From Candidatus Poribacteria bacterium (GTDB lineage: Bacteria; Poribacteria; WGA-4E; WGA-3G): a stretch of DNA of 64,000 nt. Where the stretch lies: contig OZ243938.1 in assembly GCA_965214095.1 (NCBI GenBank), positions 4,864,001 to 4,928,000 on the forward strand. Direction: 5' to 3'. Positions within the stretch are counted from its first letter, which is position 1. The number at the start of each line of letters is the position of its first letter. The translations under genes and the position numbers were made by a program. Below, piece after piece: positions 1,826 to 26,410 of the stretch. The notes under the pieces were generated by a model. That model was not told where the DNA came from, did not search any database, and saw nothing but the letters and a program-made list of their open reading frames with translations.

Positions 1826-1861
1826 AATGTAATCCTTATTCAGTATAGTATAAATCAAAAA

Positions 1862-3938
1862 TTAATCTTCCCTTTCAATAATAGCGTGTTTAATACTACT
1901 CTTAAAGTGACTATCCTTACCTATAGCCATCCATCTTTTTGAGAAAAAATCCATAGCAACAGGAATGTTAGGGGTGTGATTGGAATCAACATCCTCTAAC
2001 CAATTTGTGTAAGTGAGGGGTTCCCCGTTTTCCCAATGCCAAGATGCTCCATCTTGTGTGGAACTTAACCCAATCCAATAAAACTTACTTTCAGCAAATC
2101 TACCTTCCAACCATCTCTGTTCATTTTCATTACTAACAGTGACCAGATATGCATTTTCTGATGCAGCTTTATTTTTTGCATCCTGCCAACTCTCACATTG
2201 AATTCTTTTGTAAGCATGTCCATTTTCAGGATTAACCGACCATATTGCTTGTCGGGCAATTATACGCTTTCTTATATTGTCTTGATTTCTCTGTGTGTCC
2301 TTCAGTCTAAATATGTGGACATCATTTTGCTGTCCAGGTTTTATCTTAAACCATCTGGATTTAACTTTTTCACCTTTGTATTCTATAGAGACATTATACT
2401 CAGTTGCCCATGCACGATAAGAGGCATCAAAATAACCTTGTGAATCTGTTTTTGCACTTCCACCTGAACTACCTCCACTTTGGCGTATGCTAAAGAAATA
2501 TAGAAATGTATCTCTATCTCCATTCTGTACAGTGAGTCTAAATTGTTCATTAGCAAGAGGAGTTTTGTCTTTTAAAAGTATCCTTCCCCTAATTCGCATT
2601 GGATATGGTTTTACGGTTACCACTGTATCTTCAAGTGGAATATCTGGCTCAATTGATATAGTTGGTTTACCAAACCAATACCCAAGATGTGTTGGACTAG
2701 GAGGATAATAGGTCAAATCTCTAACTTTAATTGATACGATCTTATATTCTGGTGTAGCTTCGGGGAGAATAACTAACTGCGATGACACTGCATCAATGTT
2801 AGAAAATGAAAATCCACCTTGTATATCGGTTATTGTACGTGTCCAGTTGGACAAAGGAATTCGCGGTACTACCTCATTTCTTTGATTAAATTCAATTGGT
2901 TTAATGTAAAGTTCCAGTCCTCGCACGACTTCACCATTTGTATCCACAACTACCCCCGATAATGATGTTTTTCCTTTATCAAGTAGATTATTTTGTATAG
3001 ATCTTTTTGCTGAATTTGTCTGATGTGGGTTGACATCAGAAACATTCGTATTCTGTGCAATTTCATTCTGCGTATTTGGATTATTGGCACGTCCAACCTG
3101 ATTTCGCACAGTTGGCTTCTCAGGAGAATCAATCACCTGTCTTGCATCTGTTATTTCAATCGTCCGTTCAGAGTCTGCGTCAATACTGTATGGCTCTTGA
3201 AAATGGATTAGTTGTTTTGCTCCAACACCGATCAATAGAAATACGATAATTGCTGATGCTGAAGAAACTATCCACGGCATTACCGGTTTACTTGCTGAAG
3301 GAGCTGCCGGAGATAAGTTGGAGATTTTTTGCATGATACTCTCAGATAACTGCTGTGGTAATTGGAAACTGCCTAAGTTTTCCTGAATAAGTGCTTCTTC
3401 ACCTTTGAGCCGATTGCGTGCGCGATGTAGACGAATCTTGACAGTATTTGTTGATACACCGAGGAATTCACCGATCTCTTCACACGATAAACCTGCAAGG
3501 TAATGTAGTGAGATGACAGTCCTATCACTCTCCTTTAGTTTGTTGAGCAACTTTTTGACAAGTGAACGTTGCATCTCTTTTCTTTCTTCCTCACGTTCAT
3601 TTGAGATAATCTGAATAATACACCTCTTCCAACTCCATAGGATCGGTTTGTTCTAAGGATTCTAACTGCGGCTTTTTCTTACGGTGCCACATTTTGCAGA
3701 TATTAGTCGTAATAACATATAACCAACCAGAGAAACGGTGGGGGTGTTTTAAACTGCTGAGTTTCTGATATGCAGTTATAAAAGCATCTTGTGTTATCTC
3801 TTCCGCAGTATGGAAATCACCAATCTTCTGCCATGCAAGCGTATGTATCTGTTCTTGATATTTTTCCACAAGCAATGCAAACGCTTGTTGATCCCCCGCA
3901 AGTGTTTGTTTGACCAGTTCAGAATCGCTTTGTTTCAT
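1862..3938 (-). pseudogene. Frameshifted (split) ECF sigma factor fused to a TM helix, prealbumin-like domains and a C-type lectin domain
   Basis: 3597-3938 encodes sigma region 2 (GDQQAFALLVEKYQ...AEEITQDAFITAY...FSGWLYVI). 1862-3574 encodes region 4 (EIGEFLGVSTNTVKIRLHRAR), a TM helix and the lectin. The junction CTC AAA T GAA CGT GAG is 2 nt short relative to the intact paralogs. Confidence 0.8.
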
Positions 3939-3974
3939 TGTTGCACCTCACTATCTTTGTCTTCTTTTAACATA

Positions 3975-4003
3975 TAGATGCTAATTGGATATCAAAGGTT
4001 TCA
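3975..4003 (-). promoter_or_regulatory. Putative ECF-type promoter TGAAAC-N17-CATCTA
   Basis: The same motif and spacing recur upstream of all five ECF genes. Confidence 0.6.
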
Positions 4004-4051
4004 CTTTTGTATTATTTTCAAAAGATATTTACATCTGGATCAGTTCTATAA

Positions 4052-4187
4052 TATAGTAAAACCATAATTATTTATCCACTACGGTAGGTTTGGTTTCCTA
4101 ACCGAACCGGTGTTGTTCAGTCTCATAGATGCGGTTAGGAAACCGAACCTACCAGGGAGTGTGCACGTGTTTTTACATTTCACTATA
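4052..4187. repeat. MITE-like element with TATAGT...ACTATA ends and two inverted GTAG-REP hairpins (GGTTTCCTAACC core)
   Basis: Related copies at 8229-8360, 28793-28997 and 63091-63252. Confidence 0.75.
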
Positions 4188-4214
4188 ATGATAGCATAGA
4201 AATTGATAACTGAC

Positions 4215-4245
4215 AAAAAGAAAGGCACGCATGTTCTGCGTGCCT
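4215..4245 (-). terminator. Probable intrinsic terminator
   Basis: AGGCACGCA-TGTTC-TGCGTGCCT perfect stem followed by a T run on the minus strand. Confidence 0.65.
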
Positions 4246-4377
4246 AAAGGGTATTGTTGACTAAATTAGGGTTTACGTTTTAGGAGTATTGCTCTATGTT
4301 CAAACTAAATAATGCCATCTCTGTATTGGGTGTGCATGAGTACTGACATCAAAGTTTGCAGATAATCTCTGTTGTGA

Positions 4378-4659
4378 TTAAGTGACCTCTGCAGATTCAT
4401 CATCCATGGTTTCAGTATCAGTGCTATTTTTTCCAGTTGTATCGTTGTCCTCTGTATCATGAATCTCTATATGTTGGATTTCCTGACGATCTGTGTCTGA
4501 TGTTTCATCAATGGGTTGGGTAACCTCTCCTTGATTGCTATCATATATTTCTATGGTAGACATCTGAAATTGAAACCATACAAAACATCCGATTGTGAAA
4601 ATCAGTATAAATGCAGTTCCACCGACAATCCAGTTTTCTATTGAAAAATCTTTTAGCAT
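4378..4659 (-). CDS. Small single-TM protein with acidic tail, possibly a truncated relative of 59494-60264
   Basis: GGGAG RBS before ATG 4659. TM segment WIVGGTAFILIFTIGCFVWF followed by a D/E/T-rich region. Confidence 0.6.
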   Translation of the reverse strand: MLKDFSIENWIVGGTAFILIFTIGCFVWFQFQMSTIEIYDSNQGEVTQPIDETSDTDRQEIQHIEIHDTEDNDTTGKNSTDTETMDDESAEVT

Positions 4660-4986
4660 AATGTTCTCCCTATTGTCCATTGTTCGTCCAGTCATCACTG
4701 GGAGTGAAACTATTGTTTTTCTCTTGGTTAATCATTAAGACAAATCAAACACTATTGTGTTCATTATAACTATATCAAATTAGTTGAAGTTTACAATCAA
4801 TTCTTTCAAACTTTTTGTGTCTCTGTAATTAAAGAGACATAACTTCGGAAAAAGGTTGCACTTTTTTACTAAAATATACAAATGAAGCAGAAAAAAGTTG
4901 CATATTGGTTGAAATTTATAGCAATTGCTGTGTTTGACGATCTGATGAAGTTGAACAAAAAGGGGTTTGAATCAGAACTGTGTGAT

Positions 4987-5089
4987 TATAGTGAATTATA
5001 AATATAAGTTGACACTTTCGCCCCACGGTAGGCGAGGTTTCCTAACCTCGCCTACGCAGAGTGTTCAAGTAATTTCAAAATCTACTATA
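4987..5089. repeat. 103-bp MITE-like element (TATAGTGAATT...AATCTACTATA) with GTAGGCGAGGTTTCCTAACCTCGCC REP core
   Basis: Near-identical copies at 29992-30094 and 54764-54866, and a diverged copy at 36519-36621. Confidence 0.85.
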
Positions 5090-5176
5090 ATGAATCCTAT
5101 AGATGATTATGTTGAATTATCTCAAATATCTACCAAGAATAGGCTACAACATATCAGGTAGACAATTATGGACGAT

Positions 5177-8107
5177 TTATTTCTCAATCGGAATTTTATA
5201 CACCCCGCTACCGAAAGTGCCAGCGTAAAGAAAACCGTCAATTACTGCTAAGGATGAAACCTGCTGGGTAAGAGAACCAATCGACTTCCAATGCTGTTTC
5301 TCTTCTATCCATTGGAAAAAACCTGTAGGTGTGCTGACATACACTTCAGTACCATCAGTGCCTATTGATGTAGCAGATGTTTCATCCAGACCATCGTTGA
5401 TGGCTGTCCAAGTATCGCCTACATCCTTGGAGCGAAATACTCCCTTGTTCCAAGTGGTTACATAAAGCGTTGAACCAACCCTTTTGAGATCAGTCAAACC
5501 GCCATCAATCATTTCTGCTGTGTGAATAGGCTCCCAACGGTTTTCTTCAAAACGGTAGATTTCACTATCTCCAGTAACCGCAATCACATTCTCACTATTT
5601 GCAGATAATATCCAGATCCTGTGATGTTCCAAGCCAAGTTTGGTAAGACCCGTTCTCTGCTCCCACTTGAAGACAACACCATTCCATGCGCCCATATAAA
5701 ATGTATTGCCAACTACATCCATACTTACAATTCCATACAAGTCAATATCTGTGAAAAGTTTAACCAAAGTGTTATTTTCTCTATTCAACCTGTAAACACT
5801 ATCACCCTCACGACCTGAATAAGGCGGAATATATTTGTCATCACCAAAGTAAGCAGCGATGTAGAGCTCACCATCTGATACACAAATGTCTAGAACACCA
5901 CGTTTGCTCTGCTTTGAAGGATCGTTTATAGACAGCCATGTATCTCCACCGTCAGCAGAATAGACAATTTTTTTACCAACAACAGTGTATAGTTTATCAC
6001 CAATAACCTCTAATTTGCTGACAGATGTATTTATTATGCCAGTGTTGCATTCTACCCAAGAATCCCCTGCATCTGTTGTGCGAAAGACCCCATTTCTTGA
6101 TGTGCCTATGAAGACAGTATTATCATTGATTGGTAACACAGTTGAAACATCATCATGCATTACCCCCTCATTGATTGGTATCCAGGAATCACCCATATCC
6201 TCCGAAAGATAGATCAAACCGTCATTAGTGCCGGCGTAGAGCCTTTCGCCTTGCCCGGCAATTGTCCGAACGCGATCACTTTCTTCTTTTACTTTTTCTG
6301 GGGTGATGAACGTCCATGTGTCGCCTGCGTCATTTGACCGGAAGATCCCAGTTTCTTTTCCCATAGATCCACTCATAAAAAGTAAATGTTTCATTGAAGC
6401 AAACGACTTAACATGAAAATCAGATGAAGAATGTTGCTTAAGTGAAGGATTTTGCTTAGGTGAAGAATTTGATCCTGGTTTATCTTGTGAATTGTTTTCT
6501 GACTCGACCCCATCTGAATCCTCAACGACAACTGGATTGGTAAGTGTCCACGTGTCTTCATTCACTGTTCTGCGAAAGAGTCCTTTTTTTGTAGCAGCAA
6601 CCAACGTTGTCCCATGACTTGAGAGGCTAAAGACATTCCTCTGTGTAAGAATCGATTCTACATCCTTGCGATTATGAATCAGACGCGGGTCGTGCCCGAA
6701 GAGAAGACCAGGGAACTTTGTTCCGAGTCCATCATTGATTTGTGCCCATGAATTACCATCATTTGACTGCCAAAAACCGTAGATCCCAGTACTAACGTAG
6801 ATATGCTCATCAAGAATAACTATGTCAAGAATATCAATGGCACTGATCAGCCCAGGGACTCGGAACGCAGATACGGGTTGCCAGGTGTTGCCAATATCAG
6901 TAGAAATGTATAATCCATCCCGCGTTCCAACATAGATCTTATTCCCCTTTTCAGCGAATGAAGTAACAAATGCAGAAATATACTTCAATCGTCCTCTATT
7001 GATTAATCCAGTATTAACTGGTGTCCAGTTGTTTCCATTATCAGTTGAGCGAAAAATACCTGCCTTCTCTGTCCCCGCAAGGAGCACCCCATGAGTGGTT
7101 TTATAAAGCGTTGTTATCTCACCACCGTAAGGACCATTCGTTTGTTTCCATGTGCCTTTGAAATTAGTTCTTTCAGTATCATCCGTCTGTGCTGCACCAA
7201 ATAGTGATGTCCCGGGTTCCTGTCCCGTTCCATCATTGTTACTGAGCACATCAGAACGACGAACTTGATTGTTAATTGTTGGTTTGGCAGGGGTTTCCAA
7301 GACCAATCGTGCGTCAACGATTTCAACTGTTCGTTCAGATTGTGCAGTCAAACTAAACGGCTTCTGAAACCGAATTAGGTTTTGTGCTCCAAAGCCTATT
7401 AGTAGAACAACTAAAATGGCTGAGACAGCAGATATTGCTAAAGGTACTAAAGGTTTACTTCCTGATGGCGTTACTGGATTGAGACGTGATATTTCCTTCA
7501 TGATGTTTTCTGTCATTTGTGTTGGCAGTTGGAAACTGCTAAGGTTTTCTTGTATCACTGCTTCCTCCTTCTTTAACCGCTCTCTGGCTCGGTGAAGTCG
7601 ACTTTTAACCGTGTTCGGAGATACACCCAAAAACCTACCAATCTCTTCACACGTTAAGCCTGCGAGGTAGTGCATTGTTACCACTGTCCGTTCACTCTCG
7701 CGGAGTTTATCGAGTAACTTCCGAACAATTGCTCGACGATTTTGATTCGCTGCTTCTTCACGTTGACGAGACGTATGGTCGGAATAATATACCTCTTCTA
7801 ATTCCATTGGGTCTGTCTCCTCCAGAGATTGCAGTTGTGGCTTTTTCTTTCGGTGCCACATGTTACACTTGTTACTGGTTATGACATAGAGCCATCCCGC
7901 AAATCGGTTGTGATGTGTGAGGGTTGCGAGTTTTTGATACGCAGTGACGAAGGCATCTTGTGTAATCTCTTGTGCAATGTGGAAATCACCAATTTTCTGC
8001 CACGCCAAAGCGTGTATCTGTTCTTGGTATTTTTCTACAAGTGCAGCAAAGGCGTGTTGATCACCTTCAAGTGTACGTTCAATCAATTCAGCATCATTAT
8101 GTTTCAT
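5177..8107 (-). CDS. ECF sigma factor fused to a TM helix and an extracytoplasmic BNR/Asp-box beta-propeller
   Basis: GAGGTG RBS before ATG 8107. Sigma regions 2 and 4. TM LAISAVSAILVVLLIGFG. Repeated SxDxGxTW motifs. Confidence 0.9.
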   Translation of the reverse strand: MKHNDAELIERTLEGDQHAFAALVEKYQEQIHALAWQKIGDFHIAQEITQDAFVTAYQKLATLTHHNRFAGWLYVITSNKCNMWHRKKKPQLQSLEETDPMELEEVYYSDHTSRQREEAANQNRRAIVRKLLDKLRESERTVVTMHYLAGLTCEEIGRFLGVSPNTVKSRLHRARERLKKEEAVIQENLSSFQLPTQMTENIMKEISRLNPVTPSGSKPLVPLAISAVSAILVVLLIGFGAQNLIRFQKPFSLTAQSERTVEIVDARLVLETPAKPTINNQVRRSDVLSNNDGTGQEPGTSLFGAAQTDDTERTNFKGTWKQTNGPYGGEITTLYKTTHGVLLAGTEKAGIFRSTDNGNNWTPVNTGLINRGRLKYISAFVTSFAEKGNKIYVGTRDGLYISTDIGNTWQPVSAFRVPGLISAIDILDIVILDEHIYVSTGIYGFWQSNDGNSWAQINDGLGTKFPGLLFGHDPRLIHNRKDVESILTQRNVFSLSSHGTTLVAATKKGLFRRTVNEDTWTLTNPVVVEDSDGVESENNSQDKPGSNSSPKQNPSLKQHSSSDFHVKSFASMKHLLFMSGSMGKETGIFRSNDAGDTWTFITPEKVKEESDRVRTIAGQGERLYAGTNDGLIYLSEDMGDSWIPINEGVMHDDVSTVLPINDNTVFIGTSRNGVFRTTDAGDSWVECNTGIINTSVSKLEVIGDKLYTVVGKKIVYSADGGDTWLSINDPSKQSKRGVLDICVSDGELYIAAYFGDDKYIPPYSGREGDSVYRLNRENNTLVKLFTDIDLYGIVSMDVVGNTFYMGAWNGVVFKWEQRTGLTKLGLEHHRIWILSANSENVIAVTGDSEIYRFEENRWEPIHTAEMIDGGLTDLKRVGSTLYVTTWNKGVFRSKDVGDTWTAINDGLDETSATSIGTDGTEVYVSTPTGFFQWIEEKQHWKSIGSLTQQVSSLAVIDGFLYAGTFGSGVYKIPIEK

Positions 8108-8142
8108 GGAACACCTCACAAATAGACTAATCTTTTAATATA

Positions 8143-8171
8143 AAGATGTTATTTGCCTTATGAAGGTTGCA
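8143..8171 (-). promoter_or_regulatory. Putative ECF-type promoter TGCAAC-N17-CATCTT
   Basis: Shared motif upstream of the ECF paralogs. Confidence 0.6.
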
Positions 8172-8228
8172 TTTATTAGAAAAAAGTACGTGATTGAAAG
8201 AGAAAGACCAATTTTGTGCAGCTTCGCG

Positions 8229-8360
8229 CAGTGAAAATTATGAAGAAATTTCTACGGGTAGATGCGGTTTCCTAACCGCATCTATGACACTGAACAAACA
8301 CCGGTTCGGTTAGGAAACCGAACCTACCGTAGTGTGAAAATAATTATGATTTTTACTATA
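8229..8360. repeat. Inverted copy of the 4052-4187 element family
   Basis: Two GGTTTCCTAACC-type hairpins. The right end TAATTATGATTTTTACTATA is the reverse complement of the family's left end. Confidence 0.75.
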
Positions 8361-8442
8361 AAAGGATAGCATATAGTTGGACAATTGCCAACTATAGCAA
8401 ATCAGATTTCAGGCTTTTAAGATAGTTGGAAGCGATACCTGC

Positions 8443-8473
8443 AAAGAAGAAAGGCGCGCTTGGAAGCACGCCT
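8443..8473 (-). terminator. Probable intrinsic terminator
   Basis: AGGCGCGCTT-GG-AAGCACGCCT stem followed by a T-rich run on the minus strand. Confidence 0.55.
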
Positions 8474-8476
8474 ATA

Positions 8477-8556
8477 ATACCAAATTAACTTGATTCTAAT
8501 CCATCGGCAGAATACGCGGTTGGTATTCTGCATTGGTTAGGAAACCGCACCTACCG
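8477..8556. repeat. Partial element with a TACCAAATTAAC end and a REP half
   Basis: The end matches 56145-56156. The internal GTATTCTGCATTGGTTAGGAAACCGCACCTACCG matches 59206-59239 in reverse. Confidence 0.55.
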
Positions 8557-8567
8557 TCTGAAGAGAA

Positions 8568-9296
8568 TTAACGATCTGTTTCTTCCTGCGTTGGTACTAC
8601 CCGCGTTGGTAACGTAACTGTCGCACCTGTTGGGGTCCTTACGCTCGTAGTTGAACGTCTTTTTAGGATGCCGAACAACCTTTTTTCATAATAAGATAAA
8701 CCCAATAGTGGGTGTTCCATTTCTGACAGTTCTCTATAGTAATTTCTATCAATATATGTCAAGACACCGTGCCAACGTTCTGCAATTTCGGTATCTTCTG
8801 GTCTTTCTTTTAGAATTTGTTCTAACACGCCGCTTGATCGTTGATATGTGGAAGTTCTTGCACGTATATGCGTTGAATATCCATCAATATATACTATTGA
8901 TTTAGGCAATTCCCACATCTTGCCATCGGTAAGTTCATGGCTGGGTTCACCAAGTTGATCAGTACTCTTTTGAACAAAATATTTAGCATTTGTAGTCGGC
9001 TTTTGCGTTATATATCCAGCTGAACGTAATTTATTATCTCTAAAATTATACACAAGATAAACAGGAACTTTCTCAATTACAGATTTGTAAATAAGTAGAT
9101 CCGGTGTATGCGTAAACGGTGCTTTACCTCTTTCAATTAACTCTACACGTTCCTGTGAGTAACCCCACCGCACCTCACGAAAATCAGAATTGCCTTGCAT
9201 ATCTTCAGAAACAATATTGTGAAAGGTAGAACACCCTATGAAAAACGTCGAAATAATAAGTAATCCAGATAAGAAATGAAGTTTTGTGATGTTCAC
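8568..9296 (-). CDS. Putative lipoprotein
   Basis: AAGGAGG RBS about 10 nt before GTG 9296. Lipobox-like FFIGC. DFREVRWG motif. Confidence 0.7.
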   Translation of the reverse strand: MNITKLHFLSGLLIISTFFIGCSTFHNIVSEDMQGNSDFREVRWGYSQERVELIERGKAPFTHTPDLLIYKSVIEKVPVYLVYNFRDNKLRSAGYITQKPTTNAKYFVQKSTDQLGEPSHELTDGKMWELPKSIVYIDGYSTHIRARTSTYQRSSGVLEQILKERPEDTEIAERWHGVLTYIDRNYYRELSEMEHPLLGLSYYEKRLFGILKRRSTTSVRTPTGATVTLPTRVVPTQEETDR

Positions 9297-9427
9297 TACG
9301 GTCAAGCCTCCTTTATGATTTCTGTTTTCTAACACCATTTCTAACTGATTATACGTCAAAATAATTAGAGTTGGTATTATTTACATAATTTACTATAAGA
9401 GAAAATGCGTAAGTCCATTGTTATACC

Positions 9428-11650: not shown

Positions 11651-11842
11651 GAGAAAGTTTCCCCCAATTTTGTCATTAACAGGACTTACGCAATAATGTT
11701 TGACATAGGCTCGCCAAAACACTAATATGGTGTGCAAGGAAGTAGATAAAATGAGGAATGTGTATAAATAATTTAATTCAGATTTTCGTTCCAATAAGTA
11801 ACCATCGTCAGGTATACTCCTCATGGTGAACCGTGATTCTCT

Positions 11843-12850: not shown

Positions 12851-12879
12851 TTTTAATCTCCTGGAAGATCACTTAGGCT

Positions 12880-13082
12880 ATTGTAGCAGTTTGGACGATT
12901 TGTGACGACCTTTTAAAATTTATCGGTCATCGCACACACCCACAAGCACAGTTGTCAGATGCTGAAGTGATGACGACAGCGATTATCGCAGCACACTATT
13001 ATGGAGGCAATCATCAAACCCTTTCAGTCCATTGAAAGCATTCGGATTTATCCGAATGTGTTAGGACACTCACGATATAATA
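12880..13082 (+). mobile_element. IS982-family transposase N-terminal remnant
   Basis: Translates IVAVWTICDDLLKFIGHRTHPQAQLSDAEVMTTAIIAAHYYGGNHQT and, after a frameshift, PNVLGHSRYN. This matches the IS982 CDDLL...SDAEVMT...SRFN signature as I recall it. Confidence 0.7.
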
Positions 13083-13194
13083 CCAATTCTATTAATGAAT
13101 TTCCCTTTTGAATTAGAATGTAAGAGGCGCAATGAATTGCGCGACTACGAACCATCTATCTTTTAAAGGTTATGTTATTTTTTAGAAATGGTAT
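13080..13194. repeat. MITE with ATACCA(A/T)TTCTA terminal inverted repeats and a GTAGTCGCGCAATTCATTGCGC REP core (minus strand)
   Basis: ATACCAATTCTA...TAGAAATGGTAT ends. The same core occurs at about 52975 inside a different shell. Confidence 0.7.
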
Positions 13195-13448: not shown

Positions 13449-13494
13449 AAAACGTTCAGAGCGATAGTTTTTCTTGTGAGTTATCAGGTCAGAA

Positions 13495-15421: not shown

Positions 15422-15589
15422 TTTGTACCTCCTGGAAAATCACTTAGGCTGGATGCATGAAGTTAATTATAAATCCTTATGGACTTAAAAGTTTTGTGGT
15501 ATAAAACGTCTATCGGATTAAGTAGCAACTTAGGCTATTGTAGCAGTTTGGACGATTTGTGACGACCTTTGAATGTTCACTATGATTGG

Positions 15590-18721: not shown

Positions 18722-18740
18722 TGCACACCTCAAATGCATT

Positions 18741-18843
18741 TATGGTTAAATTTGAAAATAATTATACACTTCCATACCCCGGTAGGTGCGATTTCCTAAT
18801 CGCACCGTTGTAGACTGTATAAATAATTCCATAATCTACCATA
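18741..18843. repeat. TATGGT...ACCATA shell with GTAGGTGCGATTTCCTAATCGCACC REP core
   Basis: 103 bp long, with the same architecture as 4987-5089. Lies between the promoter motif and the RBS of the ECF gene. Confidence 0.7.
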
Positions 18844-18856
18844 GTCTTTTAATATA

Positions 18857-18885
18857 TAGACACCTTTTTGAGGATGAAAATTGCA
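18857..18885 (-). promoter_or_regulatory. Putative ECF-type promoter TGCAAT-N17-TGTCTA
   Basis: Shared motif upstream of the ECF paralogs. Confidence 0.6.
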
Positions 18886-18999
18886 CTTTTTGGTAAAATC
18901 TTATTTTTTTTGAGGAAAAATGTTAGGTAGGCATCAGAATGAACAAATTGGAGTTTTGTTAGAAGAGATAATATGTATGTGCTACATGAAAACAATACC

Positions 19000-19728
19000 T
19001 CAATGCGTGAGTGTATAAACAATAGCATTTATACCCATTTGAAATGCCATGTCTGAGAACTTACGAGGATAGTAAGGCTCTGCTGCATTCTGCCATGCAT
19101 CTCCTAAGTCAGTATTGAAGTTTATCATCATCATAATTCGACCATGGTCATCAAAGACACCCATGCATCGTACGTCAAAACCATCCTTTTCATGTGTTCT
19201 TCCTGCACGATATGCTGCAGGGGCGGGGATTTGCATCAGACTCTTAATTTCGTAGAAGCAGTCAAAGAGAGGGTGTGACATCGGTATATCTCTCGGTTCG
19301 CGTTTTGGGAATATTTTCTTGTATTGTTTATAAAATCTTTTCCACTGTTCTGTTCCGTGAAAATCATCTGTCATGATAAAACCACCACGCAAAAGATATT
19401 CGCGGAGATTGGCAGCTTCTTTTTTCGAAAGGTTAAGTCTACTCAATTCTGCGATATATGCAAAAGGATAGTCAAAAAGTTCAGATGAACCTACCTCAAT
19501 TATAGTTTCTTGTGGACTTGCTTTTATGTTTGTCTGTTTGCGAAGTTGAGTAAGTAGGTTTCGGTCTGCAGCGGGGTAGTCTATATCCCATAGACTCTTA
19601 TACCGAAAACTACCATTATATTTCAATCGGACAAAGGTAAAATCGTATAGTGACTCATCACCGATGGAATCTGGATTGATGAATAGAGCAAAGGTTATTA
19701 TAATAAGTGTGATTGGTATATGTTTCAT
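19000..19728 (-). CDS. DUF4159-domain secreted protein
   Basis: FTFVRLKY, W..DYP.AD.NL, LFDYPFAY, LREYLLRGGF..TDDF, NTDLGDAW, MGINAIVY.LTH motifs. Confidence 0.85.
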   Translation of the reverse strand: MKHIPITLIIITFALFINPDSIGDESLYDFTFVRLKYNGSFRYKSLWDIDYPAADRNLLTQLRKQTNIKASPQETIIEVGSSELFDYPFAYIAELSRLNLSKKEAANLREYLLRGGFIMTDDFHGTEQWKRFYKQYKKIFPKREPRDIPMSHPLFDCFYEIKSLMQIPAPAAYRAGRTHEKDGFDVRCMGVFDDHGRIMMMINFNTDLGDAWQNAAEPYYPRKFSDMAFQMGINAIVYTLTH

Positions 19729-19864
19729 TGGAAAGCAATCCTGTATTTTTTATAGAGTTTTTCTCAAATTATATCATGTGCTTGGAAGTATGTAAATGCG
19801 AAGTTTGATTGGAATGTATTTGGTAAGAAAATAGGTCCACTTAAACTCAAAGAATTTTGTTGTC

Positions 19865-22800
19865 CTATTTGTCAAGTGCGTAACGAAGTACACCGCGCCC
19901 TCTTGTTCCTACATAAAGGGTATTTACATCAACATCAAGACATGTAACCAGATAGGGAATTTTGGGTGTGACTTGTTGCCACATAAGAATATCACTGTTT
20001 ACCTTGTATATCATATTCTTTGCTTCACCGTATACCGTTGTCCCATCCACTGTAAACATTGTAATAATAAGTGGTTTTCCTTCTTCATCAGTGATTATTT
20101 GCCAATCAATACCGTCGCTTGATCTAATAACACCTTTGTCCGTTGCTACATAGACAAAGTTGTCAGCTAAAACTATTGCCTTGAAATGATCTACAAAATA
20201 TGGTAGGTTTTCTGATACATCGGTCCAAGTCAGTCCTTCATCAAGAGATTGCATCAGTTGCCCTTCTTTTTCGCCGACGTAAATTGTGTATTCAGACACT
20301 GCAAATCTAAATCCTACAGCATCTATAAATGAATTATTTGCATAGCAAAAAGACCTATCTTCACTAACCCCTTTATCTAATAACCCCGTATTGAACCATT
20401 CGGTATTACCCGGTTTCCATCTAAAGAGTTGATAGTTGTATTCAACATAATATATTCCATTAATAACAGCAAGACCGCCAAACTGCGATTCTGAGAAGAG
20501 ACCGTTACCATGGGATATATTTCGTCCCATAAAACCGGTAGGACGATTTAATTGAAGGTTTTCCTTCCGCCGATCAATTTTGTCTAAAATTGGCATTTCA
20601 GACACTTTGATAAGACTATTGTCTTGAGTGGAAAGACGGAAAAAACGAGGGGCACCTAATTTATCGTCTCTCACGAAAATTTCTCCATTGGATTCCATAA
20701 TACGTGTGATAAAACCTGTATCACCTTTAACAGGAGACCAAGTTTCACCACCATCGCTTGAATTGACAAATCCATCTATCGAATTAGCATACAGATTACC
20801 ATCAACAGCAATCAATTGCCAAATATCTGTAGCTACAAGTCCGGAATTAAATTGATTCCATGATTCACCACCGTCTGTCGTGCGATGTATCCCGTAGTTT
20901 CCGCTTCTGTAGTAGGTGTCCTCATTTACCATAACTATTGCAGAAGCATTTCCTAGATCCACTGTGTCTTTGGTTTTCCAGGTTTTCCCAGAATCTGACG
21001 AATAGTAGTGTTTCGTTTGATCTACAAGTGTAACATTGTTTCCTTTTACACTAATTTTTAATGGACTGTATAATAATTTATGTGAGGCTTTAGTTTCTTT
21101 ATTCTTTGTGTCTTTTTTGTCCGGTGAAATCACTTTCATTAAATTTACTATGGACAACTCCTTTTTATCTGTATTGTTTTTTCTCGGTGTAATTTTTTCC
21201 CATGTAGTCCCATGATCACTTGATACGAAAAGTTCCCAAGACAAACCTTTTGCTGCCCTTGGGTGCATGATGGGTGTATTCTCGAGAATCGAACGAAAGC
21301 CAATATCAATATGATAACTTCTGGCAACATAGAGAACATTATCAATAACTTCCATAGATATAATTGGTAAATATGTACTTTTTTCACCTATTTCATCAAG
21401 GAATATTTCCTCCCATGTATTTCCATCAAGCCGATAGAGTCCTTTATTTGTGCCGACAAATACCGTGTTTTCTATAACAGCTATCGCACGTGGTTCAATG
21501 TTTGGATAATTCTTGTCAAAAAGTGTCAGACGATTCCAAGATGCACCATTATCATCTGAACGGTATACACCGTTATCTTCAGAAAAGGTAAATTCATCGG
21601 AAAGACACAAGTAAAATGTATCGTCAAGAATCACTATTCCAATAAGTCCACCGCCTGGATGGACAGAAAATGTGTTCCATGTCTGTCCTCTATCTTTGGA
21701 TGACAGGATTTCTCTATTTGATACAAGATACAAGATACCGTCTCTTTCAACCATTGGACCGGATGGCATGCCACTCAATTGTTTTCTATGTGAGAATATA
21801 TTTCGATGGTTAATAAGTTCCCACTTACTTTTATCATCTGAGAGTCTGAAGATACCACTATGTGTTCCTGCAAATACATCTCCATCGTTTGTTGCGTAGA
21901 GATTAGCAACAACTCCACCAACAGGCCCCTGAGTTTGTCTCCATTGTCCTTTCTTATCTGATGTGCCATTATCCTCTTGTGATGCAGCATTACGTGTTGT
22001 GTCAGGATTATGTCCAGTGTTATTGCTATTATTGGTTATATTTGTAAATCCAACTCTGTTTTTAACTGTAGGTTCTGTTGGAGATTCTAAGAAGATTGGA
22101 ACGTCAACGATTTCAATAGTTGATTCAGATGCAGCCTCTAAACTATACGGTATTTGGTAACGATATAAGTTTTGCGTACCCACACCCATCAGTAGAAAGA
22201 CGAATATAGCAGAGACAGCAGATACTGCGAACGGGACAAATGGTTTGGGTGCAGTTGTAGGTGATGGTTTTAGTTGTGATATTTTCTTCATAATGTTTTC
22301 TGTCATTTGAGTTGGCAGTTGAAAACTATTTAGGTTCTCTTTTATCATTGATTCTTCCTTCTTCATTTTGTTTCGTGCCCGGTGTAGTCTACTTCTAACA
22401 GTGTTAGGAGATACTCCCAGAAACTTACCGATTTCTTCGCATGTCATTTCAGCAATGTAATACATTGTTACGACTGTTTTCTCACTTTCTTGCAGCTTGC
22501 TTAGCAGTTTTCGTACTAATGCTCGCTGTTTTCGATTGGCAGCTTCTTCGCGTTTACTGGTCATATAATTGGAATAATATACCTCCTCTAATTCAACAGG
22601 ATTAGTCGTTTCTAACGATTGTGGCTGCGGTTTTTTCTTTCTGTGCCACGCAATACATTTGCGATTGGTAATCACATAGAGCCATCCAACAAAGCAATTA
22701 TGGTTAGTAAGTGTGGCAAGTTTTTGGTATGCTGTAAGGAACGTATCTTGTGTAATCTCTTGAGCAATATGGAAATCACCAATTTTTTGCCATGCCAGTG

Positions 22801-22897
22801 CATGTACCTGTTTTTGGTATTTATTTACAAGAGTAGCAAAGGCTTTCTCATCACCGTCTAATGTGTGTTGAATCAGTTCAGAATCATCGTTTTTCAT
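19865..22897 (-). CDS. ECF sigma factor-TM-BNR beta-propeller fusion
   Basis: GAGGT RBS before ATG 22897. Sigma regions 2 and 4. TM FAVSAVSAIFVFLLMGVG. Propeller repeats. Confidence 0.9.
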   Translation of the reverse strand: MKNDDSELIQHTLDGDEKAFATLVNKYQKQVHALAWQKIGDFHIAQEITQDTFLTAYQKLATLTNHNCFVGWLYVITNRKCIAWHRKKKPQPQSLETTNPVELEEVYYSNYMTSKREEAANRKQRALVRKLLSKLQESEKTVVTMYYIAEMTCEEIGKFLGVSPNTVRSRLHRARNKMKKEESMIKENLNSFQLPTQMTENIMKKISQLKPSPTTAPKPFVPFAVSAVSAIFVFLLMGVGTQNLYRYQIPYSLEAASESTIEIVDVPIFLESPTEPTVKNRVGFTNITNNSNNTGHNPDTTRNAASQEDNGTSDKKGQWRQTQGPVGGVVANLYATNDGDVFAGTHSGIFRLSDDKSKWELINHRNIFSHRKQLSGMPSGPMVERDGILYLVSNREILSSKDRGQTWNTFSVHPGGGLIGIVILDDTFYLCLSDEFTFSEDNGVYRSDDNGASWNRLTLFDKNYPNIEPRAIAVIENTVFVGTNKGLYRLDGNTWEEIFLDEIGEKSTYLPIISMEVIDNVLYVARSYHIDIGFRSILENTPIMHPRAAKGLSWELFVSSDHGTTWEKITPRKNNTDKKELSIVNLMKVISPDKKDTKNKETKASHKLLYSPLKISVKGNNVTLVDQTKHYYSSDSGKTWKTKDTVDLGNASAIVMVNEDTYYRSGNYGIHRTTDGGESWNQFNSGLVATDIWQLIAVDGNLYANSIDGFVNSSDGGETWSPVKGDTGFITRIMESNGEIFVRDDKLGAPRFFRLSTQDNSLIKVSEMPILDKIDRRKENLQLNRPTGFMGRNISHGNGLFSESQFGGLAVINGIYYVEYNYQLFRWKPGNTEWFNTGLLDKGVSEDRSFCYANNSFIDAVGFRFAVSEYTIYVGEKEGQLMQSLDEGLTWTDVSENLPYFVDHFKAIVLADNFVYVATDKGVIRSSDGIDWQIITDEEGKPLIITMFTVDGTTVYGEAKNMIYKVNSDILMWQQVTPKIPYLVTCLDVDVNTLYVGTRGRGVLRYALDK

Positions 22898-22934
22898 GTG
22901 AGACCTCAATAGCAAAATGATACTTTAAAATATA

Positions 22935-22963
22935 TAGACGCGATTTTTGAAGCAATAATTGCA
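22935..22963 (-). promoter_or_regulatory. Putative ECF-type promoter TGCAAT-N17-CGTCTA
   Basis: Shared motif. CGTC in the -10 element is typical of ECF promoters. Confidence 0.65.
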
Positions 22964-23126
22964 TGTTTAATCGGAAAATGCAAATTGAAAAGGAATTGTT
23001 TCAATTAAAAGAAAAATGAATGATTGTAATTATAGGTCATCAGTTATGCAGTTTGTATCCGATAGAACTGATGCCACATTATTATAGCACATAGACTGAA
23101 ATACCTAAAACTCTAGCTCGTTTGGT

Positions 23127-23334
23127 CAGGGTTATTTAGTATTAAGTATTTTCCAATTGATTAGTTTTACTAAGAGTTAGGTTCAGATAATAGTTATGCA
23201 TAGTAGTAGGCACACTCCGTGTGCCGTCAAAATGTGAACGGGTTACGGCACACGGAGTGTGCCTACTACTATGCATCGCTTTATACTGATATGTGAACAA
23301 ATGTGTCAGAATTCCATAAAACTAAATATCCCTG
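23127..23334. mobile_element. CAGGG-TIR MITE carrying an inverted pair of GTAGTAGGCACACTCCGTGTGCCG REPs
   Basis: CAGGGTTATTTAGT...ACTAAATATCCCTG ends, the same as 35883-36068. Confidence 0.75.
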
Positions 23335-23461
23335 ATTTTCAGGATAAATTCTTGACAGTTAAATGGTATTGGATAGATATTAACTTCAATGCATCAGTTT
23401 TGGAATTGAAATCATCTTTTTACAATACAATTCAGTTGAAGAAATGTCTATTTTGAAACTC

Positions 23462-26374
23462 CTATTTGTCAAGTGCGTAACGAAGCACACCACGTCCAAA
23501 AGTTCCAACATAGACGTTACTCCCATCAACATCTAAGCATGTAGCGGAATATGGGATTTCTGGAGTAACTTTTTTCCATGTGCTAAGTTCCTCTTTTAGT
23601 TGATAGATAGTATTCTTTGCTAAGCTATACAATCTATTTCCATCAACATCAAACTTTATGACTTCAAGCGGTTTTCCTTCAATGTCTGGGACTGTTTTCC
23701 AATCTATCCCGTTGTTTGATCGTATAACACCCTTATCAGTTCCGACATATACATTCTGTTCAAGATAGGTAATGTCATGGAAAATCTCAACTGAGAATGG
23801 CAGGTTTTCAGTAACATTGTTCCAGGTATCACCTTCATCAAAGGATTGTAGGAGTTGACCGACTTGTTTTCCTACATATAAGGTCTTTCCTGAAACTGCA
23901 AGTTCAAAATTTGGGTTATATACCATCCTATCGTTGTCTTCATACTTTAATGAAGTAATGTACCATTCAGAAGTACCCGGTTTCCACCTCAATAACTGGT
24001 TTCTGAACTCTACATAGAATGTTGAATTACTGACTGCATAATTTGAGATCCTATCGGGTTCTTTAATTTCAACTCGTTGTAAGGAAGTGTCATCAATATC
24101 AACAGACAACTGAGGAATAGGATACGTATCAATTTCAATCCAATCAGAGTCATTAGACATCATTAATTTTGGCATGTCTTGAATATTCATTAGTTCATTT
24201 TCTTCATCTGAAAGACGCAAAATTGGATTATTTCCTTCAGATACATAAAGAACTCCATTATTGTCAACCATCAGACTATCACTATACTCATACAATGCAA
24301 CAGGTTCCCAGGACTTTCCATAGTCCATTGACGCTAAGATACCTTTATTTGCGACTCGAACATAAAGAATCTTATTCATAGATACGACATCCAATACCAT
24401 AGTTGCTATCAGACCAGCATTGAATTGATGCCAGTTCTTCCCTTCCTCTGTAGTTCTATAAATTCCCTGATAACCTGATTTATAGAAAGTATTTGAGTCA
24501 TATACTAATATACTCATAGTGCTGTATACTAAAGTTGAGTTAATTAAGTCCGGTAAAATCCAGTTTTCCCCGCCATCATTCGAAATATAATGATATCTAC
24601 CATCCACTAATAATATTTTGTCATCTTGAGCTGCGATTCTTGCCCCAATCCCACTTCCCATAGATCTCAAATGTGAGTCCTTATCTCTTGGATCTATACA
24701 ATCCCAAGTATTGCCATTGTCATTAGATTTATAGACAGTCCATCCCTTATGACTCAACATCAAGATTTTAGAATCCTTACTGACTGCAAAATTGTTTTCT
24801 TGACCTGTTACAACATAAATATGCTTTTCGGTTGCTACCATATCAAGGATTGAATCGTCTTTAGCATCTGCTTCTGGTGTTACAGACATAAATTCCCATT
24901 TCTCGTTATCATATCGGAACAATCCATCATCGGTACCGACAAAAACTGTGTTTTTAATGGCTGCGATAGAGCGGATTTTCCTATCTGTCAAACCTACTGA
25001 CAGTTCGATCCAAGTCTTACCCGTGTCAATTGATCGGAATACTGCATCGTGAAACGCAAGATAAATCGTAAGATCACTTTTTGAATCTGGAAGTCCATCT
25101 GCAAGTATCATGCCTATAGGTGTTCCCTCTTTTGACTTGCAGAAAAACTTCCATGTTTCTCCTCTATCTGTTGAAACCAATATCTCTGTGTCGTTTGCAA
25201 GATAAAGGTGTTCATACCTTTCTACAACAGGCCACCATAAATAACGTCTAATTTCACCGTGATAAATTGGACCCTCAATATTGTTAATAAGTTCCCATGC
25301 CGACCCATCATCATTCAGTCTGTAAAGTCCGTTTCGTGTTCCTGCAAAAACGTCTCCGTTTGTAGTTCTAAACAATGAAGGGACAGTTCCACCTTCCGGT
25401 CCTGTTGTTTGTACCCACTTCTGTTTTACGTTTGAGACCTCTGTCTGATCCTGTTGTGCTGCGGTAAAAAGAGAATCCTCAGAATTCAGTCCAATACCAT
25501 TGTTTTCGGTTGGTATGCTGGATTCACCAACACGGTTTCGACTTATTGGTTCTGTTTGAGATTCCACAAAATTTCGCACATCAACTATTTCAATCATAGA
25601 CTCAGACGATGCATCTATGCTATAAGGGGTTTGGTACTGATGTAACTTCATCGCACCTACTCCCATCAACAAAACTACAAAAATTGCAGAGGCAGCAGAC
25701 AAAACCCACGGAACGAATGGTTTACTGATAGGTGTAGTAGTCGGTGTCAGTTGTGATATTTTCTTCATAATGTTTTCTGTCATTTGTGTTGGCAGTTGGA
25801 AACTGCTTAGATTTTCTTTTATCATTGCTTCTTCCTTTCTCAATCTGTTACGTGCACGACTAAGTCGGCTTCTGATTGTATTTGAGGATACACCAAGAAA
25901 TTCACTAATTGAGTCACAAGACATTTCTCCAAGATAGTGAAGTGTCATCACTGTTCGTTCACTTTCTGGTAGCTTCTTCAGTAGATTTTGGACTAATTCC
26001 CTTCGTGCATCATCTGCATCTGCTTCCTGTTGCTCTTCAACATAAAATGTATATGCCACTTGGTCCACCTCTTTACTATCAACTGTCTCTATGGATTGTA
26101 TCGGTATACGTTTCTTTCTACACCATTTATAACATAGACGTGTGGCAATAACGTAAAGCCATCCAGAGAATAGATTATGATTCTTCAATGTTCCGAGTTT
26201 TTGGTATGCCTTGAGAAATGCATCTTGTGTGATTTCTTGGGCAATATGAAAATCACCTATTTTCTGCCATACCAGTGCATGAACACCTTTTTGGTATTTT
26301 TCAACTAATGTTGTAAATGCTGTTTGGTCACCGTCTAATGTTCGTTGAATCAATATGGAATCTTTATTCTTCAT
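23462..26374 (-). CDS. ECF sigma factor-TM-BNR beta-propeller fusion
   Basis: GAGG RBS. Sigma regions 2 and 4. TM WVLSAASAIFVVLLMGVG. Propeller repeats. Confidence 0.9.
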   Translation of the reverse strand: MKNKDSILIQRTLDGDQTAFTTLVEKYQKGVHALVWQKIGDFHIAQEITQDAFLKAYQKLGTLKNHNLFSGWLYVIATRLCYKWCRKKRIPIQSIETVDSKEVDQVAYTFYVEEQQEADADDARRELVQNLLKKLPESERTVMTLHYLGEMSCDSISEFLGVSSNTIRSRLSRARNRLRKEEAMIKENLSSFQLPTQMTENIMKKISQLTPTTTPISKPFVPWVLSAASAIFVVLLMGVGAMKLHQYQTPYSIDASSESMIEIVDVRNFVESQTEPISRNRVGESSIPTENNGIGLNSEDSLFTAAQQDQTEVSNVKQKWVQTTGPEGGTVPSLFRTTNGDVFAGTRNGLYRLNDDGSAWELINNIEGPIYHGEIRRYLWWPVVERYEHLYLANDTEILVSTDRGETWKFFCKSKEGTPIGMILADGLPDSKSDLTIYLAFHDAVFRSIDTGKTWIELSVGLTDRKIRSIAAIKNTVFVGTDDGLFRYDNEKWEFMSVTPEADAKDDSILDMVATEKHIYVVTGQENNFAVSKDSKILMLSHKGWTVYKSNDNGNTWDCIDPRDKDSHLRSMGSGIGARIAAQDDKILLVDGRYHYISNDGGENWILPDLINSTLVYSTMSILVYDSNTFYKSGYQGIYRTTEEGKNWHQFNAGLIATMVLDVVSMNKILYVRVANKGILASMDYGKSWEPVALYEYSDSLMVDNNGVLYVSEGNNPILRLSDEENELMNIQDMPKLMMSNDSDWIEIDTYPIPQLSVDIDDTSLQRVEIKEPDRISNYAVSNSTFYVEFRNQLLRWKPGTSEWYITSLKYEDNDRMVYNPNFELAVSGKTLYVGKQVGQLLQSFDEGDTWNNVTENLPFSVEIFHDITYLEQNVYVGTDKGVIRSNNGIDWKTVPDIEGKPLEVIKFDVDGNRLYSLAKNTIYQLKEELSTWKKVTPEIPYSATCLDVDGSNVYVGTFGRGVLRYALDK

Positions 26375-26410
26375 TGAATTTCCTCGGTGTAATTACTTCC
26401 CTTGTTTAAT

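Follow-up and report, generated by a model that had tools for sequence, protein, structure and literature searches.

Sensor-Fused ECF Sigma Factors and a Poribacterial Array

Sigma factors of the extracytoplasmic function (ECF) type that are fused to a membrane-spanning sensor are already known: IutY (ECF243) of Pseudomonas putida, ECF48, ECF52 and ECF53 of Actinobacteria and ECF57 of Planctomycetes all follow this design. In the available part of the relevant literature, IutY is the only one whose activation has been worked out by experiment: it is released by Prc and then RseP, and a truncated form is constitutively active (PMC8999054). Here, an array of five genes of the same design is analysed in a 64,000-nt stretch of Candidatus Poribacteria DNA (OZ243938.1), referred to as the window. 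The array region spans positions 416..26440, all on the minus strand, and its paralogues are labelled by position, from high to low coordinate, as E4, E3, E2, E1 and E5. The reading favoured here, with moderate confidence, is that they encode single-pass, one-component ECF sigma sensors, N-terminus inside and C-terminus outside, which would be released by proteolysis.

Like IutY, the array proteins join an ECF sigma at the N-terminus, one helix and a sensing part outside the membrane into one polypeptide (PMC8999054). Unlike IutY, they have only 35 amino acids (aa) from sigma region 4 (sigma4) to the helix, and no anti-sigma domain is detectable; their heads are propellers and lectins, and their sigma part is SigW-like rather than FecI-like. 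Sigma, helix and outside domain lie in one protein, as in hybrid ECFs, but the FecR-like or zinc-finger domain that such hybrids carry between sigma4 and the helix was not found in Pfam and PDB searches at E ≤ 10.

The actinobacterial groups ECF52 (SCO4117), ECF48 and ECF53 are similar in their C-terminal extension with helices and, in some members, a carbohydrate-binding outside domain (PMC8999054, PMC7826278), and proteolytic activation has been proposed or predicted for them (PMC8999054). In their extension, a domain resembling a zinc-finger anti-sigma accompanies one or two helices, whereas the present proteins have no such domain, come from another phylum and carry a far wider repertoire of heads. 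ECF57, compared by description only, resembles the array in its membrane-spanning C-extension, in WD40-like heads in some members and in cysteines in sigma2 and sigma4, and differs in its roughly two helices, its complete cysteine pair and its restriction to Planctomycetes (PMC7826278). The present family has one helix, a sigma4 cysteine in 55 of 126 aligned sequences, and named members that are all Poribacteria. An earlier note on this DNA had described such ECFs as known mainly from Planctomycetes, which does not stand: going by the accessible descriptions, ECF57 is planctomycetal, ECF48, ECF52 and ECF53 are actinobacterial, IutY belongs to Pseudomonas and the present family to Poribacteria.

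Two further systems are close in logic. In the SigI/RsgI pairs of Clostridium thermocellum, many paralogues combine a conserved cytoplasmic part, helix and juxtamembrane domain with variable polysaccharide-binding heads, and RsgI undergoes juxtamembrane self-cleavage at Asn-Pro, followed by RseP and then ClpXP (PMC10328401). There, the anti-sigma is a protein of its own, with a folded domain that binds sigma, whereas here the sigma is fused and the stalk, of only 43 aa, has no Asn-Pro in its consensus. By analogy, RsgI is the best counterpart for stalk and sensor repertoire, a likeness of logic and not of family. ECF128 (Actinobacteria) and ECF266 (Clostridiales) work with a putative anti-sigma partner that has a single helix and bears outside propellers, of the BNR/sortilin/YCF48 kind for the ECF128s2 partner and a beta-propeller for ECF266, which also has a predicted TGCAACA promoter element (PMC7826278). 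There, sigma and sensor are two genes; here they form one gene with a minimal cytoplasmic spacer.

New in the present family are the lack of an anti-sigma domain, a stalk of fixed length, the wide range of heads, the arrangement in arrays and its phylum. The literature searched contained no description of a poribacterial family of ECF membrane sensors. The accessible part of the ECF reclassification makes no mention of Poribacteria (PMC7826278), and the rest of its supplement or the ECF Hub might hold a matching group; WD40 and LRR proteins with membrane helices are listed in the single-cell study of Poribacteria, whose main text does not contain the word 'sigma' (PMC3909097). The family would be the most modular case so far, with one cassette, at least 13 head classes, arrays and hundreds of representatives within one candidate phylum.

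The Five Genes and Their Relatives

The earlier note had described five co-oriented paralogues, and their positions and common minus-strand orientation hold; E5 is split by a frameshift and is not one open reading frame (ORF). E4 (23462..26374) is an intact ORF of 970 aa with ECF sigma, helix, stalk and BNR propeller, in which Pfam finds Sigma70_r2, Sigma70_r4_2 and Sortilin-Vps10 at 1e-15 and a hydrophobic 19-mer occupies aa 224-242 (Kyte-Doolittle mean over 19 residues, KD19, 2.32). E3 (19865..22915; 1016-aa ORF), E2 (15590..18739; 1049-aa ORF) and E1 (5177..8119; 980-aa ORF) are likewise intact fusions on the same strand. Their true starts are probably the ATG codons at aligned residue M5, at 22897, 18721 and 8107, respectively; an ATG stands at this position in 118 of 120 homologous copies, and matches to the profile of the shared N-terminal module (N-module) begin there too.

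In E5, the first piece (3597..3938, minus strand; 113 aa) holds sigma2 only and ends at a stop produced by the frameshift, while the second (1862..3574; 570 aa), in the next frame, carries sigma4, linker, helix, stalk, CarboxypepD_reg and C-type lectin. The break falls in the sigma2-sigma4 linker and amounts to a 2-nt gap near 3605 relative to the intact orthologues in two other loci (L001 and L030). Intact versions, 692-705 aa long, are common among the orthologues (P0122, for instance, has 693 aa and is 88% identical). Against the L001 orthologue, dN/dS is 0.07 for the first piece and 0.32 for the second; since both still look constrained, the break is either recent or an assembly error. In another locus, L033, an E5-type gene is disrupted at almost the same spot of the sigma2-sigma4 linker by an insertion sequence (IS; 14592-15830) carrying a 292-aa DDE_Tnp_1_3 transposase.

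The N-terminal parts of the four intact paralogues are 58-71% identical over 290 aa, and the 300 nt coding for sigma2 occur as five DNA copies in the window at 64-74% identity. Values of dN/dS are 0.16-0.25 in the N-modules and 0.28-0.42 in the ectodomains (0.16 and 0.42 for E2 against L001), which suggests that the array members are real, constrained genes.

A 290-aa N-module profile, scored against 1.84 billion representatives, retrieved 570 at E ≤ 1e-30. Nearly all of the best 150 match from the start to about residue 288, so that helix and stalk are included; their total lengths run from 210 to 1377 aa. The closest relatives of E1 are 86% identical over the full length (P0001), and full-length relatives span 39-86%. 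Every relative with a named organism is Candidatus Poribacteria; a deep-branching subclade (query P0351), with 2200 fused-length relatives, is also poribacterial where named. In addition, a scan through one genome of each species turned up 355 stretches that encode a relative, of which 50 loci were kept. These all come from metagenome-assembled genomes (48 titled Poribacteria, 2 'uncultured bacterium'), and several overlap on the same contigs, so they are not 50 independent cases. Because it used two very specific peptide patterns, the scan says nothing about other phyla.

These samples bear on whether the fusions are artefacts of gene models or assembly, in which a sigma gene and a separate sensor gene are read together. 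Frameshifts in several long-read copies (E5 of the window, the E1 orthologue of L001 and copies in L011) show that long-read assemblies are not error-free. Nevertheless, 136 of the 150 best representatives, which come from many sources, show the fusion unbroken, as do 101 of 130 unique copies in the loci, and alignment occupancy at the junction is 1.00, with no gaps. Given this recurrence, the artefact explanation is effectively refuted and retains a negligible probability.

The Conserved Cassette

The N-module of about 285 aa comprises sigma2-sigma4, a 35-aa linker, one membrane helix and a 43-aa outside stalk. Its conservation was followed in an alignment of 126 rows (A4), made of the 122 of the best 150 representatives that cover the module plus E1-E4.

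Pfam, which was run on the 14 ORFs of 416..26374 (and on 39 window ORFs in all), finds Sigma70_r2 and Sigma70_r4_2 in all five paralogues, with Sigma70_ECF also matched. Only regions 2 and 4 are present, above the model cut-offs, as in ECF (group 4) sigma factors. NCBIfam, run on 11 ORFs, gives 87-98 bits for E1-E4 with the general ECF superfamily model TIGR02937 (cut-off 42.9); none of its equivalog models reaches the cut-off in these ORFs, SigW and RpoE being the best yet below it. The nearest solved sigma in a profile search is SigW of B. subtilis (5wuq, 5e-28). In E1, region 2 lies at aa 27-93 (7841..8041, minus strand; Sigma70_r2 2.9e-10, TIGR02937 98.5 bits) and region 4 at aa 131-184 (7568..7729; Sigma70_r4_2 6.6e-16), and the second piece of E5 still matches Sigma70_r4_2 at 2.7e-14.

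Both the sequence and the spacing of the module are kept. Information content is highest in sigma2 (3.20 bits) and sigma4 (3.17 bits) and is 1.92 bits in the linker between them (modal length 32 aa in 111 rows). It stands at 2.42 bits in the linker after sigma4 (35 aa in 109 rows), 2.57 bits in the helix (25 aa in 110) and 2.46 bits in the stalk (43 aa in 106). Beyond the stalk it falls to 1.32 bits, with a modal length of 21 aa in 61 rows only and a range from 0 to 116.

In E1, the cytoplasmic linker (aa 187-221; 7457..7561, minus strand) consists of two short amphipathic stretches with Pro199 between them, followed by a Pro-rich run. Hydrophobic positions recur with helical spacing at 188, 189, 193, 196 and 198 and again at 202, 206, 207, 210 and 213. 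The motif ENL.SFQLP.Q..E.IM, which the earlier note had named among the parts shared by the paralogues, is indeed invariant or nearly so in all five.

No anti-sigma domain was recognised in or near this linker. A Pfam search at E ≤ 10 with four linker-helix-stalk pieces gave nothing relevant (two were empty and two had one weak unrelated match, E 0.06-0.07). A PDB profile search with linker and helix at the same threshold returned no anti-sigma chain; its only match, a Notch3 membrane peptide (E 0.081), was taken as chance. In the Atlas, residues 183-296 of P0071 reached a TM value of 0.5 only with their own Poribacteria cluster. Nor does any neighbouring ORF match an anti-sigma family (14 ORFs in Pfam, 11 in NCBIfam), in line with the earlier remark that a separate anti-sigma gene was not recognisable. 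As a separate observation, PF25852.1 stands in the precomputed Pfam lists of many family members (P0001 and P0002 among them), where it may already describe linker-stalk or propeller.

Class I anti-sigma domains have a mean length of 101 ± 33 aa and four helices, whereas the class II protein CnrY fits two helices into fewer than 50 aa, according to the part of the source available (PMC7406223). Against these sizes, the 35-aa linker is too short for a class I domain and could be at most a class II-like two-helix element; the lack of a recognisable anti-sigma domain makes the minimum size of an inhibitory element a matter of interest. In an exploratory coupling analysis by the mean-field method (492 unique rows, effective number 150), T53 in sigma2 with M/L202 in the linker scores 1.57, compared with a maximum of 1.38 among 12264 physically impossible control pairs (sigma-to-helix or sigma-to-stalk). 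The four pairs formed by H47 and T53 with F196 and M202 all rank in the top 110, and the top 60 pairs are mostly within domains (20 sigma2-sigma2 and 14 sigma4-sigma4). In sigma-70 alignments, residues H47-D55 would fall at sigma region 2.1/2.2. The core-binding surface at region 2.1/2.2 is covered by anti-sigma helix 4 (PMC7406223). The coupling is a weak hint, not a result, that the linker may dock on sigma2.

The single membrane helix of the earlier note is borne out in each protein. One 19-mer, at about aa 224-245, is strongly hydrophobic (KD 2.2-2.7), the next best reaching at most 1.8, and a segment with KD19 >1.6 sits at the expected place in 136 of the 150 best representatives. In E1, the helix region covers aa 222-246 (7382..7456, minus strand), with a hydrophobic core at 224-243 and a KD19 of 2.69. 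K222, P223 and P226 before the helix and G242 within it are at least 91% conserved across the 126 rows. The helix is rich in small residues, and Ala and Ser are abundant in its cytoplasmic half.

In the window paralogues and in the family, conservation extends 43 aa past the helix, a feature that the earlier note had not mentioned. This outside stalk (E1 aa 247-289; 7253..7381, minus strand) has near-invariant Q252, P254 and Y255 (at least 91%), and a stretch of alternating hydrophobic and charged residues (TVEIVD...) suggests strands. Between E1 and E2, the DNA coding for linker, helix and stalk is 85% identical, above the sigma2-coding part at 70%. The fixed 43-aa stalk would be a candidate for a universal cleavage or transduction module, reusable in synthetic sensors.

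The sigma part also contains conserved cysteines. Cys85 in sigma2 is found in 124 of the 126 rows, and both Cys85 and Cys157 in sigma4 are present in all five window paralogues. One alternative is a sigma that remains tethered, active in the membrane without cleavage or governed by a conformational or redox switch, for example through these cysteines; ToxR-type regulators are likewise membrane-bound and function without proteolytic release. The lack of a detectable anti-sigma domain suits this alternative, as it leaves no obvious element needing destruction, and the cysteine pair of ECF57 has been proposed as regulatory by its describers (PMC7826278). Yet the sigma4 cysteine occurs in less than half of the family (55 rows), the 35 aa from sigma4 to the membrane leave little room for core polymerase and promoter DNA, and a conserved stalk of fixed length is hard to explain without processing there. 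Moreover, the only fused ECF characterised by experiment, IutY, is released by proteolysis (PMC8999054). Taken together, a tethered, uncleaved sigma is regarded as unlikely.

Interchangeable Heads

Outside the membrane, the earlier note had seen BNR propellers in four paralogues and prealbumin-like plus C-type lectin domains in one; the domain searches find propellers in four and a lectin in one. E1-E4 match Pfam Sortilin-Vps10, BNR and PSII_BNR and have six strict Asp-boxes each (S.D.G..W). E5 has no Asp-box; its head matches Lectin_C (1.4e-11) and CarboxypepD_reg, the latter at 1.7e-06 and 28.7 bits, under the Pfam cut-off of 32.3.

The E1 ectodomain (5180..7132, minus strand) consists of BNR/Asp-box propellers and is GH74-like. 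A profile of the E1 head with full-length homologues matches the GH74 xyloglucanases 2cn2 (5.9e-23) and 2ebs (9.6e-21) and also 6p2m and 4lgn (GH74 range 6e-23 to 4e-18), besides sortilin (7e-8) and Ycf48 (3e-8). The profile matches and the Asp-boxes both point to the tandem BNR propellers of GH74. As these alignments run blade by blade, the catalytic acidic pair is not placed, and binding-only and enzymatic heads look alike at this level. A glycan or host-surface ligand is plausible for the heads, since the E1-type profile matches GH74 at 6e-23 and E5 has a C-type lectin.

Within the window, the heads are 29-40% identical to each other, except for the E2 and E3 ectodomains at 75%. Among the best 150 representatives, 133 heads were compared (14 proteins without a helix and 3 with heads <80 aa were dropped), and BLAST groups them into 24 clusters. 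Assigned to the best-matching reference head, they comprise 50 BNR, 44 WD40, 5 LRR, 4 lectin, 3 redoxin, 3 GHL15, 1 Kelch and 1 PD40 heads, with 22 left without a class. A Pfam search with 43 of these 150 proteins found in addition Laminin_G_3, transglutaminase core, Trypsin_2 with TPR, Big_5, Reg_prop and beta/gamma-crystallin, as well as several heads without a family. At least 13 domain classes are thus carried on one conserved N-module.

A tree of the first 285 columns of the alignment, built with FastTree and with a quick IQ-TREE search, was labelled with head classes from BLAST and Pfam (113 rows labelled, 13 unlabelled). It needs 29 changes of head class, against a least possible 12 and a shuffled mean of 51, and none of 200 shuffles was as low. 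The two programs concur, and even when only well-supported branches count, no fewer than 13-14 changes for BNR and 12 for WD40 are required. In its N-module, E1 is closer to lectin-type relatives (P0143) than to E4. As the earlier note had proposed, the outside domains are interchangeable, and heads have been swapped repeatedly.

The heads also invite a different explanation, namely that these are surface-displayed, 'eukaryote-like' host-binding proteins whose sigma part is a cytoplasmic anchor or vestigial. WD40, LRR, Kelch, BNR and lectin heads are among the eukaryote-like classes of sponge symbionts, often with predicted membrane helices in the available part of the single-cell study (PMC3909097), and free secreted paralogues of the heads occur beside the genes: a lectin paralogue and WD40 and PD40 proteins in the window (WD40 and PD40 being found among the family's ectodomains too), and proteins with LamG, PA14 or trypsin-TPR at other loci. 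A mere anchor should not be the most conserved part of the protein, as the sigma is (3.2 bits; dN/dS 0.07-0.25), nor should it match full-length ECF models, and an ECF-type promoter fronts nearly every member. Surface display alone is accordingly very improbable. Should the family work as the phylum-wide cassette proposed below, a large share of the WD40, LRR, Kelch, BNR and lectin proteins called 'eukaryote-like' in these sponge symbionts would act as sensor heads coupled directly to transcription rather than as adhesins or decoys, and host sensing by uncultured symbionts would become testable with heterologous reporters.

Predicted Promoters and Candidate Targets

The five upstream regions align on (A/G)TG(C/A)AA(C/T)-N17/18-(C/T)(G/A)TCT(A/T), followed by a GAGG ribosome site. 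All on the minus strand, the sites are TGCAAC-N18-CGTCT for E4 (26412..26440), TGCAAT-N17-CGTCT for E3 (22936..22963), TGCAAT-N17-TGTCT for E2 (18858..18885), TGCAAC-N17-CATCT for E1 (8144..8171) and TGAAAC-N17-CATCT for E5 (3976..4003). The family motif, TGCAAC-N17-CGTCTA, is predicted to be an ECF-type promoter, with AAC in the -35 and CGT in the -10 element. It resembles the promoters predicted for ECF30, ECF116 and ECF21 in the accessible part of the reclassification (PMC7826278).

A loose form of the pattern has 10 sites in the window, against 2.4 expected, and five of these are the array promoters. Across the 50 loci and the window, the motif occurs in 89 of 120 unique upstream 250-mers, compared with 47 of 2000 random ones, at a median of 37 nt from the ATG and with a spacer of 17 nt in 77 cases and 18 nt in 12. 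Sigma-70-like sites were not enriched (38 found, 41.8 expected), and a terminator scan likewise gave no enrichment. Outside ORF interiors there are 94 unique motif sites, 81 of which precede an N-module ORF. Six stand in front of genes for small proteins that are secreted, lipoprotein-like or membrane-anchored, one of which resembles a 3-keto-disaccharide hydrolase, and the remaining seven have no called ORF within 400 nt, at least four of these fronting missed N-module genes (window E5, L003, L015 and L033).

Standing before its own gene, the motif implies autoregulation of the array genes by the predicted promoter, while the genes behind orphan promoters would be candidate regulon members. 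The promoter variant is kept within each orthologue group: the E2 type in 13 of the 13 copies with a motif, the E4 type in 12 of 12 copies from other genomes and the E3 type in 8 of 9. This retention may reflect insulation or simply shared descent.

As for the orphan sites themselves, the E2-type variant TGCAAT-N17-TGTCTA is found at L011 13279, L047/L050 10196, L035 10023 and L037 2314 and 4499. Besides the 3-keto-disaccharide hydrolase match, the small proteins behind orphan promoters include one group related to the product of 4378..4698 in the window.

Upstream of E2, a palindromic element is inserted between the promoter-like site and the start codon. The leader of about 130 nt folds at -37.8 kcal/mol (z -4.3) and contains a repetitive extragenic palindrome (REP)-like copy at 18781-18803; the E2 orthologue of L001 has no REP insertion, and its promoter lies 35 nt from the ATG. 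The palindrome (core GGTTAGGAAACC within a 23-mer) has 11 copies in the window with at most three mismatches, against 0 expected. These 23-nt sites start at 4131, 8257, 8306, 8533, 18781, 28824, 28892, 28941, 36559, 59207 and 59302, often as inverted pairs between genes.

A Proposed Model of Signal Transduction

In the proposed mechanism, the sigma domain would be inactive at rest through its tethering at the membrane, with the two short amphipathic linker stretches probably packing on sigma2 in place of a full anti-sigma domain. Binding of a ligand by the head, most likely glycans or host-matrix components, would permit a first cut in or near the conserved stalk, after which a site-2 protease would cut the helix, with its many small residues and near-invariant Gly. 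The freed fragment of about 25 kDa could then join RNA polymerase and transcribe from TGCAAC-N17-CGTCTA sites. These sites would place under its control its own gene, as a positive feedback loop, the next gene downstream (in the case of E5, the secreted lectin paralogue) and genes for a few small secreted proteins.

The orientation with the N-terminus inside is predicted from the sigma domain, which must be cytoplasmic, and from the kinds of outside domains. Release by proteolysis is drawn by analogy with IutY and RsgI, and the features that suggest it are indirect: the autoregulatory promoter, the juxtamembrane stalk and the small-residue helix with its near-invariant Gly. Site-2 proteases usually cut after consecutive alanines, according to the available part of the RsgI literature (PMC10328401), and the Ala/Ser-rich cytoplasmic half of the helix fits such a cleavage loosely.

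Several points weigh against this mechanism. No site-1 or site-2 protease gene is found among the 39 Pfam-scanned window ORFs, although linkage would not be expected. The charge of the helix flanks is indecisive for topology (in E1, two K+R on either side), and the stalk consensus over the 126 rows has no Asn-Pro pair of the RsgI self-cleavage type. A Clp-type tag exposed by the site-2 cut would threaten the fused sigma itself. Furthermore, about one in ten of the 130 unique copies looks broken, E5 included, and the enrichment of sigma-to-linker couplings in the top 300, relative to the impossible sigma-to-stalk pairs, is no more than about 2-fold.

A broader proposal would make the family a phylum-wide plug-and-play cassette, in which a self-inhibitory two-helix linker and a stalk converting ligand binding to cleavage accept almost any head, paralogues are insulated by their own promoter variants, and secreted paralogues serve as both outputs and head donors. 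This extension is offered tentatively, as a possibility with somewhat less than even chances.

Arrays and Turnover

Local expansion into arrays, suggested from the window, is general in the sample. In a tblastn search with the E1 N-module, 40 of the 50 loci have two or more copies within ±10 kb, up to five, and the copies of an array are co-oriented throughout, bar one weak hit. The 130 unique copies comprise 101 read on for at least 450 aa, 12 cut by locus ends and 17 split or short, at least three of these 17 being artefacts of frame anchoring.

The closest genome, L001, has an E1 module 98% identical to that of the window and a similar gene order from E2 to E1 (E2, PD40, a 228-aa ORF, WD40, a 263-aa protein, E1). 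Its E5 is intact at 702 aa, and an extra BNR-type paralogue sits between E1 and E5, more exactly between E1 and the small membrane protein. At L001 10001-16291, the E1 orthologue is split (547 + 435 aa), and the extra paralogue, of 994 aa, is absent from the window. These differences point to rapid gain, loss and breakage in arrays or to long-read indel errors. Considering the split copies, the extra or absent paralogues and the IS-broken copy among the loci, the family turns over by duplication, loss and breakage.

Neighbouring Genes and Other Features of the Window

The genes between and beside the array members are mostly predicted to be secreted and lie on the minus strand. Only 3 nt past the E5 stop, 416..1858 encodes a secreted paralogue of the E5 ectodomain, with CarboxypepD_reg and C-type lectin (32% identical over 346 aa, 1.6e-47). 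It is probably co-transcribed with E5, and a lectin paralogue also follows the E5-type gene in L001 and L033. Between E1 and E5, 4378..4698 encodes a small protein anchored in the membrane at its N-terminus, relatives of which sit elsewhere behind orphan copies of the array-type promoter. This protein and its relatives were ruled out as anti-sigma factors because their helix begins no further than about 10-20 residues from the N-terminus.

Inside the array, the block 8568..15421 contains a 263-aa secreted protein (8568..9359), a secreted WD40 protein with 13 repeats in Pfam (9428..11824), a 257-aa secreted protein (13495..14268) and two secreted PD40 paralogues with TolB-like propellers (11843..12850 and 14411..15421; Pfam). 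The WD40 repeats are visible in the DNA as 12 copies with a 126-nt period. The C-terminal tail of this protein may resemble the Por-type sorting domain. A Por-type sorting domain is reported on WD40 proteins of Poribacteria in the accessible part of the single-cell study (PMC3909097). The PD40 paralogues have near-identical signal peptides, and their DNA is 96% identical in parts, which indicates a recent duplication inside the array.

Directly downstream of E3, 19000..19728 encodes a secreted DUF4159 protein (Pfam 1.3e-49). DUF4159 is the commonest non-sigma neighbour of the family, with 19 ORFs in the 50 loci and the window, 8 of which come immediately after a same-strand N-module gene.

Elsewhere in the window, where Rfam and a tRNA scan gave 0 hits each, positions 30111-35828 hold an ORF of 1905 aa, presumably about twice the usual length of UvrA, in which the UvrA interaction domain is found twice and ABC ATPases are matched several times, and UvrB is encoded at 42082..44154. 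PhyH (phytanoyl-CoA dioxygenase) genes are found at 26593-27393 and 39994-40776. The other loci, too, often have PhyH nearby (17 ORFs in 13 loci), and the Poribacteria single-cell paper, in its accessible part, lists supplementary tables on phyH domains (PMC3909097).

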